Shown: positions 56,211-63,180 of the stretch, piece after piece
How the letters are laid out: the number at the start of each line of letters is the position of its first letter
Numbering within the stretch: position 1 is the first letter of the stretch
Origin: Patescibacteria group bacterium
Lineage (GTDB): Bacteria; Patescibacteriota; Minisyncoccia; Phycocordibacterales; UBA9973
DNA: 64,000 bases
Assembly: GCA_038063535.1 (NCBI GenBank)
Contig: JBBTUV010000002.1
Location: 4,723 to 68,722, forward strand
Direction of reading: 5' to 3'
Program-made: the position numbers and the translations under genes
The notes under the pieces: generated by a model
What the model was told of the DNA's origin: nothing
Seen by the model: the letters and a program-made list of their open reading frames with translations, nothing else
Databases searched by the model: none

Positions 56211-56283
56211 AGTCGGATAGCTCAGCTAGTAGAGCATTCCCCTGATACGGGAACGGTCGCAGGTGCAAATCCTGCTCCGACTA
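56211..56283 (+). tRNA. tRNA-Ile (anticodon GAU), no encoded CCA
   Basis: Manual cloverleaf: acceptor AGUCGGA/UCCGACU, D-arm GCUC-AGCUAGUA-GAGC, anticodon arm UUCCC-CUGAUAC-GGGAA, variable CGGUC, T-arm GCAGG-UGCAAAU-CCUGC, discriminator A. The T-loop has G at position 55. Confidence 0.75.
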
Positions 56284-56331
56284 CTAATATTCTTTTATAC
56301 TTACCACTCCAATGTTTATTCATACATAAAG

Positions 56332-56403
56332 TGCCCTTGAGAGGAATCGGACCTCTACCTTCTCGTTAGAACCAAGAAATTCTATCCATTAAACTACAAG
56401 GGC
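56332..56403 (-). tRNA. tRNA-Arg (anticodon UCU), no encoded CCA
   Basis: Reverse complement gcccttgtagtttaatggatagaatttcttggttctaacgagaaggtagaggtccgattcctctcaagggca. Perfect 7-bp acceptor stem, D-loop with GG, anticodon arm UCUUG-GUUCUAA-CGAGA, T-arm AGAGG-UCCGAUU-CCUCU. G at position 32 and C at position 55 are non-canonical. Confidence 0.65.
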
Positions 56404-56717: not shown

Positions 56718-56899
56718 CTTACTACACTAGATTAAATAAAGTAAAGAATTGGGGGGGTATAAGGCAAATCCAAAAAATGAATTAGAAATGGTTAGACATT
56801 CCCGCACACACCTTAAAAATAAAGCCGGATTAGAACTAAAAAGGTATTAAATGGTATTGGTAGCTTGTTATGGAAAACATACCATACTATAATTAAGGT

Positions 56900-57370
56900 A
56901 TGAAAAAGAATCTTCAGTTATTGGCTTATCTAGCTAAAGGACATCCTGAAGCCTCTATTACTGTGCTAATTAAACTATGCTACTTAGCTGATTTAATTAG
57001 TCTTAAGAGATTTAAAAAGAAAATCTCAACTTTTGAATATATAAGATATTATTTCGGTCCTTTTGATCCTGAGGTTTACGGTGATTTAGAATCTTTAGTA
57101 AAGGATGGGGTTTTAATTGCAACACCCGAATATACGCAAAAGGGGGCTGAGGCAATTATTTATCATTTCAATGAGACAAAAGACTTGAACATTAAAGATA
57201 TATCAAAAGAGGATAAGGTTATTCTGGACGAGCTTTTAGAATCAGTCCGAGGTTATGGAGCAAAAACTCTTACGGAAATTACATATAATACCAAACCAAT
57301 GAAAGCTCTTGGGGCAACTCTTGGAGGTAATGAAAATCTAGGAAAGGAGCTTAATTTAACTACTGCTTAG
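56900..57370 (+). CDS. Panacea-domain (DUF4065, SocA-like) putative antitoxin
   Basis: LQLLAYLAKGHPEASITVLIKLCYLADLISLKRFKKKISTFEYIRYYFGPFDPEVY follows the DUF4065 pattern (KL.YLAD ... Y....YGPf...vY). Preceded by TATAAT and aagg. Confidence 0.55.
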   Translation: MKKNLQLLAYLAKGHPEASITVLIKLCYLADLISLKRFKKKISTFEYIRYYFGPFDPEVYGDLESLVKDGVLIATPEYTQKGAEAIIYHFNETKDLNIKDISKEDKVILDELLESVRGYGAKTLTEITYNTKPMKALGATLGGNENLGKELNLTTA

Positions 57371-57382
57371 TTGTATGCTGTT

Positions 57383-57898
57383 ATGGAAATGCCAGACGGC
57401 ATATTGTTAAAAAACATAAATTTACGTAATGCTTTTTTAGATAGAAAATCTATAGAAGCAAATACTGGCAAAATTAAAGCTAAATACAAGCTTTTGACAT
57501 TTAAGGATCTTATACTTAGAGATCTTGGGGTTTTTGTTTTTCATATATTGACCACGGGCAAGGACTCATATATAAAAGAAAAAACGATGGATATTTTTCT
57601 TGCGGACTGGGAATATAGGGATGGGACACATTTAAATTCGGAATGTTCTAAGTTATGTAGTCAAAAAGTGGATATTATAAATAAAGAGGTATTACTAGAA
57701 AAAATCCGAGATACAAATAATAGATTTCCGCATACTGGCACACTTAGTCAAATAAAATTTAATGAGATTTTAAAATTCATTAGAGAAGATTTTGAGAAAA
57801 CAGATTTAAAAACGGATTTTGATGTAAAAGAGATTATTAACTCTATGTTTGACAAGAAGCAAGTGGCAAAAAATATTCTTGATAAGTTTGGGCTATAG
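57383..57898 (+). CDS. Uncharacterised 171-aa protein immediately downstream of the Panacea gene; candidate toxin partner (PanT-like)
   Basis: Starts 12 nt after the Panacea gene stop and is co-oriented. No recognisable motif. No TM. Confidence 0.4.
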   Translation: MEMPDGILLKNINLRNAFLDRKSIEANTGKIKAKYKLLTFKDLILRDLGVFVFHILTTGKDSYIKEKTMDIFLADWEYRDGTHLNSECSKLCSQKVDIINKEVLLEKIRDTNNRFPHTGTLSQIKFNEILKFIREDFEKTDLKTDFDVKEIINSMFDKKQVAKNILDKFGL

Positions 57899-58024
57899 TT
57901 CTTTCCAAATTTCAAAGGCTTCGGCTGGATCAAGATCCCATTCTTCAGCAAAAGCTTGAAGCTCCTTTGCTTCTTCAGGGCTTAGGTCGTTGTCTTTTGC
58001 TATCTCAAATGTTTCCTCATCCAT
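57893..58024 (-). CDS. Tiny acidic ORF (43 aa), hypothetical
   Basis: Reverse-complement translation MDEETFEIAKDNDLSPEEAKELQAFAEEWDLDPAEAFEIWKEL. Begins 2 nt after the stop of the 35-aa membrane ORF. Below the ORF-track size cutoff. Weak. Confidence 0.2.
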   Translation of the reverse strand: MDEETFEIAKDNDLSPEEAKELQAFAEEWDLDPAEAFEIWKEL

Positions 58025-58026
58025 AT

Positions 58027-58134
58027 CTAATTACTAAATTTCTCTAATAAAAAAACAATTAAAATAAGAAGTCCGGCTATTAGCCAAAACTTGGGGTCTT
58101 TATAATTCTTTGTGTCAAATCCCTTATATCTCAT
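58027..58134 (-). CDS. Tiny membrane peptide ORF (35 aa), hypothetical
   Basis: Reverse-complement translation MRYKGFDTKNYKDPKFWLIAGLLILIVFLLEKFSN. Lies about 30 nt downstream of res. Weak. Confidence 0.2.
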   Translation of the reverse strand: MRYKGFDTKNYKDPKFWLIAGLLILIVFLLEKFSN

Positions 58135-58164: not shown

Positions 58165-60474
58165 CTATAAAGATTTCCATTTCCCATTTTCATAATCATA
58201 TTTTTTATCTTGGTTTAATGTCCAAATTCTGTTTTCATTATCTGATTTAGATATACCACCAAATAGTCTGTCTGCCTTATTTTCTTTAATATAGACCTGT
58301 AGTGCCTCAGCTTTCAATTTAGTATCACTGCTTGTAGCTGTTTGCCCTCCCTTAGTATCAAAAATGCCCGTCCTGCCGTCTTTGTAGTGGACAATGAAGT
58401 CTGCGTAGAAAGTGGCAGGTTTTTCCTTTTCGTCATTGTAGGGTATGCCTAGATATATTTCATTTTTAGCATCTCCATTTTTAAACCACCAAGCAATATT
58501 TTTGTTCTTCTCAAGATAGTTTTCAATAAAACCCATTTCAGTTTTCCATTTAGGGGACACATAGGTTGGGACCATTACACACCGCTTATAATTTTTTACA
58601 ACGGTATTTTTAGAGTAGTAATCTTCTTTAGGAACGTTCCATTTAGGTATTTCTTTATATTTCTTTTCTACCTTGCCTCTATATTTTGCGTATTTTTTTA
58701 TAGAATCCTGAATTATACTTTGAGAAAACCCCATATTAGTTAAAATAACTTTCTGAACATAAAGTTTGTCTATACTTTTAATTCCAAGATATTTTTCAAA
58801 AATCTGATATATTGCAACTCGTATTTTATCAAAGGATCTTGCTTGTTGGAACTCACCACAATTCTTCTTGAGAAAAGCAATAAACTTTCGTTCTACTTCT
58901 TCATCATCCATTTTTACTTTGTTTTTTTCTTCTGCCTTTATATTTTGATTTTCTTTATCTATGTCTTTTATAAGACCGTCAACGATCATTTTTTCTTCAA
59001 TTCTTTTAATATCAAGGAGCAGGCTAGTTCCGTCAGCACTCTTAAACTTTTTTAAAAGATTAAGGTTATTTCTTGCTTCTTTTTCATTTAACTTACCGCC
59101 AATTTTGTCTATAAATTCATCAAAGAAGTATTTTCTATAATCAAGCATAAGGTCATTGTATTCACCTCGCATAAGATAGACCGACTTTAGATCAATGTCT
59201 TTGTAGGACTTTATCCTTATTGCTTTTTTAACCTTAAGATATTCTAAGGCATCTTCTTCAATTTTAATTTCTTCAAGATTTGCATAGACATAAGCACGAT
59301 TTAAATCTTCTTCCTTGTAATGTTTAAACTCTGGCATTCTCATAATTCTACCGACTGTCTGTATTTCAAATATCTCACTCTTAGTCTGTCTAAATTTAAC
59401 TAATATGTGGGCTCTAGGACAATCCCAGCCAGTAGCTACAACTTGTTTAAAAATAAGAAAATCAACCCTACTGTTTAGTTTTTTAATATCTTCTAAATTT
59501 TCTTTATCATCACCTGTTAGCCATCGGGCAAGATTTTTATTCTTATAACTAAAACCCCTTTCGTCTAAGAATTTTTCAACCCAATCTCTTTTTTGTTTAT
59601 CTAAGGCACTTAGTTTTTCTCCTTCGTTTGGTAATTGGACAAGGACTAAAGGTCTTATTTTTGAACCCTCTTTTTTGTATAGTTTCTCTAATTCTTCTCG
59701 TTTTTTTAGTGCTTCTTCAAATATAATCTGATCACCACTTTTCTCACTTTTAAGGTCCTTAGACTTAATCTCAGGGTTAATAATAACCTCCTTTTTTATC
59801 ATCTGTGCATCTTTTACGGTCTGTAATTCAACATATTCTCCCTCTCTATCCCCATAAACATAACCACCGCCAATTTTGGGCGTTGCAGTCATATCTATTT
59901 GAAGGGCTGGTTTAATTATTTCCTCTATGATCTGAATCGTATTCGGTGTAATATTTAGATGACTTTCATCTACAATAAGGACAACTTTTCTGCCTTCGTC
60001 TTGAGTATTTTCACAAAACTTTCTAAGGTTTTTATCATACTCATTATCTTTCATAAATTTATTTATTGGATCACCTTTCTTTATGTCTTTGTCAGGATTG
60101 TCCTTTCCAGCCTTTGAAAAAATTTGCTCCCAGTTTATAAAAAGAACTTCATTTTCTTTTATTTCATTATCAAGAATATCCTCCAAAAATGACATCACTA
60201 TACCACCGCCTCCGATATTCTCTTCAAGACTATCTTTGCTTTGCTCTGCTAAAACACCTTTTGAAATCCATACGAAAGATAAATTGGACTCGCTCTCAAG
60301 GGCTAAGCGTTCAATGATACCAGACATCATAACTGTCTTACCCGATCCAGTCGGGGATCTGAAAAGAATCTTTTTAAAATTTACACCATCAAAAGACTTC
60401 AGAAACTTGTCTGCTTGTTCATAAATATTATCTACTGTTTCCTGTTGATATTTTTTAAAAGAAATGTTGTTCAT
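58165..60474 (-). CDS. res: Type III restriction enzyme Res subunit (SF2 helicase-nuclease)
   Basis: Walker A FRSPTGSGKTVMM, motif II VLIVDESH, helicase motif VATGWDCPR. Immediately downstream of, and translationally coupled to, the mod gene. Confidence 0.7.
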   Translation of the reverse strand: MNNISFKKYQQETVDNIYEQADKFLKSFDGVNFKKILFRSPTGSGKTVMMSGIIERLALESESNLSFVWISKGVLAEQSKDSLEENIGGGGIVMSFLEDILDNEIKENEVLFINWEQIFSKAGKDNPDKDIKKGDPINKFMKDNEYDKNLRKFCENTQDEGRKVVLIVDESHLNITPNTIQIIEEIIKPALQIDMTATPKIGGGYVYGDREGEYVELQTVKDAQMIKKEVIINPEIKSKDLKSEKSGDQIIFEEALKKREELEKLYKKEGSKIRPLVLVQLPNEGEKLSALDKQKRDWVEKFLDERGFSYKNKNLARWLTGDDKENLEDIKKLNSRVDFLIFKQVVATGWDCPRAHILVKFRQTKSEIFEIQTVGRIMRMPEFKHYKEEDLNRAYVYANLEEIKIEEDALEYLKVKKAIRIKSYKDIDLKSVYLMRGEYNDLMLDYRKYFFDEFIDKIGGKLNEKEARNNLNLLKKFKSADGTSLLLDIKRIEEKMIVDGLIKDIDKENQNIKAEEKNKVKMDDEEVERKFIAFLKKNCGEFQQARSFDKIRVAIYQIFEKYLGIKSIDKLYVQKVILTNMGFSQSIIQDSIKKYAKYRGKVEKKYKEIPKWNVPKEDYYSKNTVVKNYKRCVMVPTYVSPKWKTEMGFIENYLEKNKNIAWWFKNGDAKNEIYLGIPYNDEKEKPATFYADFIVHYKDGRTGIFDTKGGQTATSSDTKLKAEALQVYIKENKADRLFGGISKSDNENRIWTLNQDKKYDYENGKWKSL

Positions 60475-60476
60475 AT

Positions 60477-62189
60477 TTAAAAATTAAATATTGTTTTGTA
60501 AGTTTCTAATATCTTTTCTGGTATTGCTTCAATGGTAAATTTAATACCCAAATCCCCAAACTCTTCTTTGGAAAAGTCTTTTGCATACGAAAAAACATAA
60601 ACAGATACTGGTTTATCCTTCAATTTCTTTAATTGTTCAATAAAATCTTCAAAATAGAAAAGGTCAAAAAGTATAGCTGTATATCTGTTTTGACTTTGAA
60701 AAACCTTAATCCTGTTTTTCTTATAGCTATCTCCAACTAAATTAAAAGAGCCTTCTTTGAGGCAAAGAATTTCTGTTGATCCATCAACTATCTTATGCTT
60801 CAAATAATCAATAGATTTTTCCAGCTTAACAAAGTCAGTTTTAAGATATTTTAAATTACCCCCCAATCCTTTAATCTTCTTATTTTCTAAGTTTTTATAT
60901 CCCATTGAAACTTTTTTAATTCTCTCATAGGTAATATTTTCACAGAGCTTGTTTTCATTGTTTGTGCAAAGAATAAATTTACGATTGCCATTATCTTCTT
61001 TGTTTAAGCTTAAAACAGATTGACCGGTTGTCCCTGAGCCAGCAAAAAAATCTAAAATCGTTGATTCTGTATTAGTGGCAAGTTGAATAAGTGTCCTTAT
61101 CAAAATTGATGGTTTAGGATTATCAAAAATATCCTCTTCATCATTACCTATATTAAAAATATCTCGTAGTTCCTTTTTTCCTTCTGTGGTTGTTCCTTTG
61201 TTAAGAAAAACAGAATACGGGGTTATATTTCTTTCCTCGTTTATGAATATTTTTATTGACGGAACGGCATCACCCTTTTTGCCCCAATAAATTCTATTAT
61301 CTTTGTCCAATTCTAAAAACTCTTCTTGAGAGACATTAAATTGTCTTTTGAATTTTTTACCTGACGGTGATTTAACTGTATAATAATTTTCGTGATTTAT
61401 ATCTGACGCACCTTCTTTATTTGATATACTACCTGCTTTGTATGGACCTCTTTTATCATTATCAGGATTGCCATATTCATTTTGAAAATTTGGCATTTCC
61501 CTTATTTTATTTAAAACTTGACTCCTTTTAAAAACTACAAGGATATATTCGTGGTCTTTTCTAAAGCTTGTTGTGTTTTTCATTTTCCCATCCCGCCCAT
61601 CACCACTTTTTCTCCAAACAATCACATCCGATTGATTTTGACCAAAGATCTCTTCAATAAGGATTTTCAAACCAGCAAACTCATTGTCGTCTATTGAAAT
61701 AAACATTACTCCGTTTTTTGAAAGAAGGCTTTTCGCCAACTTCAATCTTTTTGACATAAAGGATAACCATTTACTATGTCTATATCTATCTTCTTTATCA
61801 ACATAATGGTCATTGTATGTAAAATCTTTACTACCGGTGTTGTATGGCGGATCAATATAAATAGCATCAACTTTATTTTTATGGGTATATGAAAGCACCG
61901 AAAGAGAATGATAGTTATCCCCCTCAATTAAAATATTAAAATCCTCATTTTTATCGGTAATAATATCAGGATAGTTATTTCCTTTTTCTCGTAAAATCGG
62001 CAAGGCATCTTTACTATCTTTATCAAATTTTTCAATTTTATTCTCCCAAACAAGCCCGTATCTTTTACGGTCTTTTAGTTTTTTTATTTTAAGCTCAAGA
62101 TTTGAAATGCGATCAAGAAGCTCTTTTTCTTTCGTATCAGTTTCCTTTGTCATAGGCACCCCTGAGGTGCCTAAAAACAAAATAGGCAT
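60477..62189 (-). CDS. mod: Type III R-M Mod subunit, N6-adenine DNA methyltransferase (beta class)
   Basis: Motif IV IYIDPPYNTG precedes motif I ILDFFAGSGTTGQS, the beta-class order. N-terminal coiled coil. About 570 aa. Confidence 0.8.
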   Translation of the reverse strand: MPILFLGTSGVPMTKETDTKEKELLDRISNLELKIKKLKDRKRYGLVWENKIEKFDKDSKDALPILREKGNNYPDIITDKNEDFNILIEGDNYHSLSVLSYTHKNKVDAIYIDPPYNTGSKDFTYNDHYVDKEDRYRHSKWLSFMSKRLKLAKSLLSKNGVMFISIDDNEFAGLKILIEEIFGQNQSDVIVWRKSGDGRDGKMKNTTSFRKDHEYILVVFKRSQVLNKIREMPNFQNEYGNPDNDKRGPYKAGSISNKEGASDINHENYYTVKSPSGKKFKRQFNVSQEEFLELDKDNRIYWGKKGDAVPSIKIFINEERNITPYSVFLNKGTTTEGKKELRDIFNIGNDEEDIFDNPKPSILIRTLIQLATNTESTILDFFAGSGTTGQSVLSLNKEDNGNRKFILCTNNENKLCENITYERIKKVSMGYKNLENKKIKGLGGNLKYLKTDFVKLEKSIDYLKHKIVDGSTEILCLKEGSFNLVGDSYKKNRIKVFQSQNRYTAILFDLFYFEDFIEQLKKLKDKPVSVYVFSYAKDFSKEEFGDLGIKFTIEAIPEKILETYKTIFNF

Positions 62190-62379: not shown

Positions 62380-63180
62380 ATGAGCAAAAAGGCAAAGGAT
62401 GATTTTGGTCCGATTGATCCAAAATTTGACCCTGAAAAATACTATGACGAAAATATTAAGCCTTATATGGAAAGCAAGGGCGTGGCAAAAATGTGGAATT
62501 ACTTTATGGAAATTACAAAGACCGATTATTTCCAAAATTTTATAAAAGAAATTAGAGCGAAATATGGTATACCTGAAAACGGCTTTAAAATGCACGATGA
62601 AAAAATCGGAATTCCGGCTGAAACAATTGTGCTTCCAAGAGAGAAAAATGACGAACTGAGAGAAGAAATAATAGAAAAAATTTGTAAAAAATATCAATTA
62701 CATTACTTTGATTTTTATGATGTTATAGAATTTTATATTTATTATAATATACTAAGACCCCTAAATGATGTCGGAGCGATGGGACTATTCAGGGTTTCAG
62801 ATGTTATAGATGAAAAAGAAGAGCCATTTGGAAAGCTTTTTCAAGATAGTGATGATATGGCATACCCTATTGCCATTCGTATAAGTCCATATGCCAGCCA
62901 AAGAGACCTTATTGATTTTATTGAAAATAAAGTAGTTTGGAAAAACAGTATTAAATTTTTACAGAATAAATACAGGAAAGATAATATAAAGATTGGTAAG
63001 ATAAAAAATAAAAAGCAGTCAGTTCAAGAAAGAAATGATTTTATATGGCAAAACCGGCATTTACCCCGCAAGCAAATAATGAGCTTAATAACTGATAAAT
63101 TCGGCTATGATCGGACTGTAGATTATGGCTATATTGGCAAGATAATTTCACTAGAAAAGAGAAAGAGAAAAGAACTGTAG
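62380..63180 (+). CDS. Hypothetical 266-aa protein in the defence island
   Basis: Clean ORF, Lys/Glu/Asp-rich, no recognised motif. Antisense ORF 62311..62697 rejected. Confidence 0.45.
   Translation: MSKKAKDDFGPIDPKFDPEKYYDENIKPYMESKGVAKMWNYFMEITKTDYFQNFIKEIRAKYGIPENGFKMHDEKIGIPAETIVLPREKNDELREEIIEKICKKYQLHYFDFYDVIEFYIYYNILRPLNDVGAMGLFRVSDVIDEKEEPFGKLFQDSDDMAYPIAIRISPYASQRDLIDFIENKVVWKNSIKFLQNKYRKDNIKIGKIKNKKQSVQERNDFIWQNRHLPRKQIMSLITDKFGYDRTVDYGYIGKIISLEKRKRKEL

Follow-up and report, generated by a model that had tools for sequence, protein, structure and literature searches.

A Panacea antitoxin gene and its partner, a candidate toxin with a predicted MazF-like fold, form a conserved two-gene module in Patescibacteria and other lineages

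Towards the end of a stretch of Patescibacteria DNA (64,000 nucleotides of contig JBBTUV010000002.1, assembly GCA_038063535.1, a metagenome-assembled genome (MAG); the whole stretch is called the window here), two closely spaced genes on the same strand encode a Panacea-domain protein, PanA, and a hypothetical protein, PanT, which we interpret as a candidate toxin-antitoxin (TA) pair, abbreviated PanAT. The pair and the putative promoter in front of it are as follows.

56900..57370, plus strand: panA, encoding PanA, a 156-amino-acid (aa) open reading frame (ORF) taken from the ORF scan and the raw sequence
57383..57898, plus strand: panT candidate, encoding PanT, a 171-aa ORF taken from the ORF scan and the raw sequence
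56865..56893, plus strand: sigma-70-like promoter (TTGTTA, 17 nt, TATAAT) from a consensus scan and conservation, ending 6 nt before the panA ATG

The initial annotation had proposed a Panacea antitoxin followed by an unrecognisable partner, and its coordinates, ORF sizes, shared strand and 12-nt spacing were borne out by the ORF scan and the raw sequence. The TAG stop codon of panA ends at 57370 and the ATG of panT starts at 57383, leaving a gap of 12 nt. An in-frame TTG at 57371 would serve as an alternative panT start, giving a 175-aa product with four more residues; the 171-aa ATG form was kept because the family alignments and the relatives begin at the MEMPD of this form. In GenBank, PanA is named 'Panacea domain-containing protein' (MEK7569401.1) and PanT 'hypothetical protein AAB500_00710' (MEK7569402.1). 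The two genes also share one reading frame, with one TAG and four codons between them (…LTTA(stop)LYAVMEMPDG…); a read-through PanA-PanT fusion is probably no conserved feature, since both gap and frame vary at other loci.

PanA scores 53.6 bits (E = 5.2e-14) with the SocA_Panacea (DUF4065) profile PF13274, for which the gathering score is 25.7. The match spans residues 23-132 of PanA and positions 1-110 of the 113-position profile, and the earlier DUF4065/Panacea assignment thus survives a profile search. It is a standalone Panacea protein, to which no N-terminal helix-turn-helix (HTH), PAD1 or zinc-binding domain is added. Its GPx signature is G53-P54-F55, of which G53 and P54 are unchanged throughout both clade alignments (A6 and A8); the 'GPV' signature of Panacea is critical for neutralisation (Kurata et al., PMC8832971). 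The AlphaFold2 (AF2) model of PanA was confident (predicted local distance difference test score (pLDDT) 93.4, predicted template modelling score (pTM) 0.89), with an ordered C-terminal tail (residues 138-156) and a winged-helix-like core whose resemblance to PadR and RTP is weak (E of at least 0.035). The top PDB fold match of this model was chain B of the M. tuberculosis DarTG complex (7yk3_B; E 0.035, template modelling (TM) score 0.54, 152 columns), with PadR/RTP winged-helix proteins next. These matches are weak, but they may indicate that a TA complex of known structure contains a structural relative of Panacea. We also considered the C-terminal tail of PanA (GATLGGxExLGxxLDL) as a toxin-specific neutralising element, like the tail of MazE. 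This idea was dropped because HTH-Panacea proteins paired with Gp49-like toxins share the tail, and because the tail is predicted to be ordered.

At E<=0.09, searches of Pfam, NCBIfam, PADLOC and PHROGs gave no match for PanT, and a scan of 102 PanT relatives against Pfam gave scattered noise with no consistent family. Thus the earlier description of a partner without a recognisable motif stands at the level of sequence, but not at that of structure, where the AF2 model matches MazF/PemK toxins in both the PDB and BFVD. No match to a known non-toxic family, such as a methyltransferase or a DNA-binding protein, was found; such a match is what the initial annotation had named as contrary to its proposal. 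A word-indexed protein search with PanT returned seven relatives (62-100% identity), and an exhaustive HMMER search returned 137 cluster representatives at E<=1e-3, of which 45 reached E<=1e-10; the family accordingly comprises at least 137 clusters at 50% identity. Its members are mostly 160-180 aa long and come almost entirely from metagenome assemblies or MAGs, mostly of Patescibacteria, with no informative names. A tblastn search of plasmid and phage collections with PanT found no relative, nor did a scan of GTDB genomes with a narrow PanT alignment.

Conservation in the family was measured on an alignment of 102 members (A1). One residue, K34, is invariant (102/102), while D20, S23, E25, K36 (97/102), F53, K107, N113, F115 and K125 are near-invariant. 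T28, K32 (81/102), T57 (87/102), W76, S89 and D110 are also strongly conserved.

The pairing of the two genes is retained across genomes (homologous loci are denoted by L numbers where they must be told apart). For ten PanT members with 25-70% identity to the PanT of the window, a SocA_Panacea gene lies directly upstream on the same strand on every encoding contig; one short contig retains only the last 32 residues of PanA, and these carry the C-terminal motif of the PanA clade. In the reverse test, an alignment of PanA proteins was scanned over one genome per GTDB species, which returned 26 loci. The results showed that a PanT-family gene lies immediately downstream at 17 of the 17 scan loci with a close full-length PanA, but at none of the nine with a more distant PanA. 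After removal of duplicates, PanT follows one particular PanA clade on the same strand at all 25 distinct loci (25/25), with a gap of -8 to +13 nt, and among these loci a PanT-family member was never seen with another antitoxin type. The family and its pairing are far beyond chance, given 137 cluster representatives and an adjacency kept in 25/25 distinct loci.

The paired loci include members just 25-30% identical to the PanT of the window, and the identities of PanA and PanT co-vary (r = 0.83), with a mean identity of 53% for PanA versus 35% for PanT. Their hosts include Paceibacterota, Moraniibacteriota, Doudnabacteria, Parcubacteria, Saccharibacteria, Gracilibacteria, Omnitrophota, Eubacteriales, Ectothiorhodospiraceae, Enterousia and other Alphaproteobacteria, Desulfomonilia and 'delta proteobacteria'. 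Flanking genes are unrelated between PanAT loci, and the neighbourhoods look mobile or defence-like, with Prim-Pol/MerR genes, IS1595/PIN genes or phage-like gene strings at loci other than the window. Because the pair is kept while the flanking genes differ from locus to locus, we regard PanAT as a mobile two-gene module. These data show that PanA and PanT co-diverge and move between phyla as a strictly conserved two-gene module.

The structure of PanT was predicted from the family alignment, giving an AF2 model with a pLDDT of 92.9 and a pTM of 0.89. In this model, a short N-terminal helix is followed by six strands (residues 16-24, 31-42, 50-57, 68-72, 76-79 and 88-100), a helix (101-109), a seventh strand (117-121), a long helix (123-138) and two extra helices (146-156 and 163-168), with the barrel and its C-terminal helix occupying residues ~16-138. 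The AlphaFold and Foldseek check that had been suggested for the 171-aa protein thus yielded a confident model, and the top 50 PDB matches were all MazF/PemK/EndoA/MoxT endoribonuclease toxins. The best of them was MazF-mt3 (5hkc_A; E 4.5e-4, probability 1.0, TM score 0.72 on the target), aligned over ~128 columns at ~10% identity. Against the BFVD viral models, 11 of the top 14 matches were named 'PemK-like', 'PemK/MazF family toxin' or 'endoribonuclease', the other three had no functional name, and the probabilities collapsed after these 14. The order of secondary-structure elements in PanT is that of MazF, to which one helix at the N-terminus and two at the C-terminus are added; the C-terminal helical extension comprises ~35-50 residues. 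When residues are mapped by element order, K32, K34 and K36 lie in beta2, where MazF has Arg, and T57 ends beta3. Overall, PanT is predicted to have a MazF/PemK fold (a MazF/CcdB-type SH3-like barrel plus C-terminal helix) but falls outside the PF02452 family.

With a probability of about 70%, we consider that panA and panT constitute a type II TA operon in which PanT, a candidate MazF-like RNase, is neutralised by PanA binding, a reading that draws on the structural model and on analogy with characterised PanAT pairs. The two genes would be transcribed from the promoter abutting the panA start codon, with panT probably translated by coupling. PanT would act as a MazF-like sequence-specific endoribonuclease and arrest translation. 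Its beta1-beta2 hairpin (D20, S23, E25 and K32/K34/K36) would occupy the topological position of the MazF substrate loop and catalytic Arg, and T57 at the end of beta3 that of the catalytic Thr. PanA would bind PanT directly and so neutralise it, using the Panacea domain itself, which is how standalone-Panacea antitoxins are reported to act. On its low-GC island beside a type III restriction-modification (R-M) system, the module would most plausibly stabilise the island, contribute to phage defence, or both. Previous work is consistent with this mechanism in several respects: the tested PanAs co-purify or form complexes with their toxins, and neutralisation needs neither ClpXP nor Lon (PMC8832971); two validated MazF/PemK-like PanTs without a match in CDD inhibit translation (PMC8832971); and standalone Panacea neutralises its toxin directly, with a sensory role also proposed for the domain (NetFlax, PMC10440598).

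Several observations weigh against this interpretation. The PemK_toxin hidden Markov model (HMM) PF02452 matches neither PanT nor any of its 102 relatives, and the MazF sequences used as controls do match it. Aligned with hhalign to a verified six-sequence MazF/Kid/ChpBK/MazF-mt3 profile, the PanT family reached a probability of 1.2%, and the PanT family profile had zero matches among PDB sequences at E<=10. A relaxed local hhalign run against the MazF profile gave a colinear but non-significant alignment (0.2%), which we take as a hint only, and with B. subtilis MazF as the query, a word-indexed search retrieved nothing below 93% identity. The equivalence of K32/K34 with Arg and of T57 with Thr rests on element order and this non-significant alignment, and the conserved polar set of PanT (Asp, Ser, Glu, four Lys and Asn) differs from the Arg/Thr site of MazF. 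Furthermore, eight PanTs were non-toxic in E. coli (Kurata et al., PMC8832971), so pairing with a PanA does not guarantee toxicity.

The closest known systems are PanA pairs with MazF/PemK-fold toxins that have no domain-database match, namely clusters T5 and T6, with experimental validation for the pairs of Pseudomonas moraviensis and Bifidobacterium ruminantium (Kurata et al. 2022, PMC8832971). The pair in the window resembles them in having a standalone ('noNTD') Panacea gene first and a toxin gene within a few nucleotides, in the absence of a domain-database match for the toxin together with a MazF/PemK-type fold (here predicted), and in the translation inhibition and neutralisation by direct binding that would be expected by analogy. 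Judged by their published descriptions, T5 and T6 are set apart from it: they reach HHpred probabilities of ~99% to EndoA/MazF, whereas the PanT family has no profile-level similarity to PDB sequences or to the six-sequence MazF profile. PanT also differs from the T5/T6 toxins in its C-terminal extension of ~35-50 residues and its conserved residue set. Its family comes from MAGs and metagenomes, mostly of Patescibacteria, whereas the study of Kurata et al. covered RefSeq genomes; in the searched part of its Dataset S1, the candidate-phylum entries found were all from Saccharibacteria and have an HTH-PanA in a different cluster (PMC8832971). Compared with MazEF, PemIK and Kis-Kid (PF02452), the pair shares the toxin architecture of a beta-barrel, short helix, beta7 and C-terminal helix (TM score 0.72 on the target) and the antitoxin-first gene order. 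In contrast, its antitoxin is a Panacea protein rather than MazE/AbrB or RHH, and PanT has no PF02452 match, conserved Lys where, by element order, MazF would have its catalytic Arg, a beta1-beta2 unit predicted to be a long tight hairpin, and extra C-terminal helices.

Regarding expression, the promoter-like site upstream of panA scored 10/12 in the consensus scan, and such matches are no commoner here than in shuffled sequence. The TTGTTA -35 element, a TAnAAT-like -10 element and a distance of 6-7 nt to the ATG are kept in the window and at L007, L001, L008, L013 and L017. The promoter call gains weight because the hexamers and the ATG distance are kept where the DNA further upstream does not align. 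This sequence conservation suggests that the promoter would give a leaderless or near-leaderless panA/panAT mRNA, and the gaps between PanA and PanT, which are very short or even negative, point to translational coupling. The -10 element also lies within an inverted repeat (56878-56902), which was rejected as a conserved element, as it is not kept in homologous loci. In addition, the sequences at 56855-56876, upstream of panA, and at 57368-57389, across the panT start, form a direct repeat of 22 nt with 77% identity and TGTTATGGAAA in common; with two copies only, it may be a chance match.

The pair lies within a segment of distinct composition, the features of which, together with the neighbouring genes, are listed below.

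56211-56284, plus strand: tRNA-Ile(GAT), found by ARAGORN and Rfam RF00005
56331-56403, minus strand: tRNA-Arg(TCT), found by ARAGORN and Rfam RF00005
56300..64000, no strand: low-GC island, from the composition profile
57893..58024, minus strand: 43-aa acidic ORF downstream of res, from the ORF scan
58027..58134, minus strand: 35-aa ORF with a hydrophobic core downstream of res, from the ORF scan
58165..62189, minus strand: type III R-M system, convergent with panAT, from Pfam and PADLOC
58165..60474, minus strand: res (Pfam ResIII; PADLOC REase_III, 2e-15)
60477..62189, minus strand: mod (Pfam N6_N4_Mtase; PADLOC MTase_III, 7e-85)
62380-63180, plus strand: 266-aa ORF beside mod (GenBank hypothetical protein, MEK7569406.1)

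The GC content is ~51% up to ~56.0 kb and ~30-35% (~32%) from ~56.3 kb to the window end, and the break at ~56.0-56.5 kb coincides with the tRNA-Ile/tRNA-Arg pair at the host/island junction (56211..56403; 66.5 and 57.3 bits with RF00005). Along the low-GC segment, a 96-aa membrane-like ORF is followed by the PanAT pair, the two small ORFs, the type III R-M system and the 266-aa protein, and the segment extends past the end of the window. The 266-aa ORF had no match in Pfam, NCBIfam, PADLOC or PHROGs. No integrase was found within the 64-kb window, nor do the tRNA ends recur there as att-like repeats. The segment with PanAT and the type III R-M genes looks like a horizontally acquired island. 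All three features on which the initial annotation had based its PanA-PanT-type pair hold, namely the antitoxin-first order, the tight spacing and the island context (GC ~51% to ~32%). The closest PanAT homologue, at L007 (2331-7673), with 81% identity in PanA and 70% in PanT, likewise has a type III R-M system ~2 kb away. Its Mod and Res are 36% and 23% identical to those of the window and differently arranged; because the two systems are so distantly related and differ in arrangement, the association with type III R-M apparently arose independently.

A question raised by this setting is whether the pair serves mainly in phage defence by abortive infection, PanA being a sensor from which PanT would be released on infection, a possibility compatible with the mechanism above. 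In its favour are the location of the module on low-GC island DNA immediately next to a type III R-M system, the 70%-identical PanT homologue near an unrelated type III system, the sensory role that NetFlax proposes for Panacea (PMC10440598), and a partial match of PanA to the PADLOC candidate PDC-M19A (positions 8-124 of a 294-position model, 30.7 bits). However, we do not assign the pair to PDC-M19, as this match is only partial and PanT has no PADLOC match, and neither PanA nor PanT was found in the phage or plasmid collections. A recognised defence system occurs in only two of the neighbourhoods with listed gene content, 14 further genome-scan loci lying outside this count. We therefore view defence as the main role as a tentative, minority possibility. 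More distant from the favoured interpretation is a SocAB-like type VI arrangement, in which PanA would be a proteolytic adaptor delivering PanT to ClpXP. The pair has a compatible gene order and shares the Panacea/SocA domain with the antitoxin of SocAB of Caulobacter crescentus, and SocA, the founding Panacea protein, acts as such a ClpXP adaptor; other tested PanAs, by contrast, bind their toxins directly, co-purifying with them, and those of Kurata et al. needed no ClpXP or Lon (PMC8832971). Since PanT is moreover unrelated to SocB, a type VI mechanism appears highly improbable. It is also very unlikely that the pair is not a TA system at all, with PanT as a non-toxic, MazF-fold nucleic-acid-binding or regulatory partner of the Panacea protein. 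The eight PanTs of Kurata et al. that were non-toxic in E. coli (PMC8832971) and the weak resemblance of the winged-helix-like PanA core to PadR/RTP regulators would fit such a role, but the genes form a strict, overlapping or abutting two-gene module in many phyla and unrelated neighbourhoods, on mobile or low-GC DNA, and every high-ranking fold match of PanT is a TA toxin.

Within the TA interpretation, the activity of PanT could differ from that of an mRNA interferase. CcdB (CcdAB, PF01845) and MazF have the same superfold. A toxic PanT might thus be no RNase but a CcdB-like gyrase poison, or might have another activity arising from its unusual Asp/Ser/Glu/Lys set, a view to which the lack of a detectable MazF sequence signature, conserved polar residues unlike the MazF Arg/Thr pair, and the ~35-50-residue C-terminal extension absent from MazF would be congenial. 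On the other hand, the CcdB HMM PF01845, which matches the control CcdB sequence, matched neither PanT nor the 102 relatives, no CcdB is among the top 50 fold matches, and the antitoxin belongs to another class than that of CcdAB. The top 50 PDB matches and the named ones of the top 14 in BFVD are all MazF/PemK RNases, the Lys-rich conserved surface suits RNA binding, and the two validated MazF-like PanTs inhibit translation (PMC8832971). Taken together, a non-RNase toxin is quite unlikely. A related and likewise unlikely scenario is that the MazF-fold PanT has a rebuilt active site, in which a near-invariant Asp/Ser/Glu hairpin, four Lys and Asn would replace Arg/Thr, and in which the conserved C-terminal helical extension ends in a 'K-L-G-L' motif. 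Its target or chemistry would then be unlike that of an mRNA interferase (for instance, one particular site in tRNA or rRNA, or an activity other than nucleolysis), with neutralisation by a dedicated Panacea clade, and such toxins would be particularly frequent in Patescibacteria with their reduced genomes.

As for novelty, the initial annotation had suggested a new toxin family, which holds insofar as PanT belongs to a new sequence family and is a candidate toxin; it does not represent a new toxin type or fold, as MazF-fold PanTs have already been published. Because Kurata et al. (2022) had validated PanAs with such toxins, we describe PanT as a new, highly divergent MazF-fold family and not as a new fold. 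What is new here is the sequence family, not the fold or the system type, and its new features are the absence of a profile-level link to PemK, the extra C-terminal helices, the Lys/Asp/Ser/Glu-rich conserved set, the strict one-to-one pairing with a PanA clade, and a host range lying mainly in uncultivated lineages. The current picture of how PanAT systems work is unchanged by the pair in the window. The MazF/CcdB superfold gains an unnamed candidate toxin family of at least 137 clusters with a testable function, one that is annotated just as 'hypothetical protein' and that sequence profiles cannot recognise. PanAT systems are also extended to uncultivated Patescibacteria, Omnitrophota and other lineages, in which TA biology is largely unexplored.

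Neighbouring PanA clades have other partners. In a distant clade found in Peregrinibacteria/Peribacteria MAGs (L034, L038, L039 and L040; ~1750-2900), the Panacea proteins are HTH_3-Panacea fusions of ~230 aa, each encoded just after a 140-145-aa protein, that is, with the toxin first. The 140-145-aa partner at L034 is Gp49/HigB-like by a weak, sub-threshold match (E 1.1e-4; 22.7 versus a 23.9-bit cut-off), and that at L038 had no Pfam match. A C-terminal GA(x)LGGKEGW..L.L tail is common to these fusions and to the PanA clade of the window, and at L039 a SMODS nucleotidyltransferase gene immediately follows the fusion. In a Gemmatimonadota MAG (L041, 1675-3052), the gene for a 208-aa Panacea protein directly follows that for a DUF7002 protein (PF22531, E 1e-68), possibly a further type of PanT. 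The differing partners of these clades represent the partner swapping described for Panacea; with one clade locked one-to-one to a single toxin family and its neighbours carrying Gp49/HigB-like or DUF7002 partners, they provide a clean natural example of it.

The two tiny ORFs between the pair and res that had been noted earlier both exist, with the sizes and coordinates then given, but they are encoded on the other strand, and no connection between them and the pair was found. Homologues were sought at the other PanAT loci and none was found; the two ORFs (57893..58134) were thus rejected as part of the pair on grounds of strand and of this lack of homologues. The 35-aa hydrophobic ORF has a 34-aa relative with at least 90% identity at L043 (4685-4789) and L044 (1411-1515), within an element that carries phage integrase, AntA, MerR, HTH_17 and primase genes. 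This ORF is thus probably a genuine small gene carried by mobile elements; its copy in the window contains a terminator-like hairpin (58088-58072).

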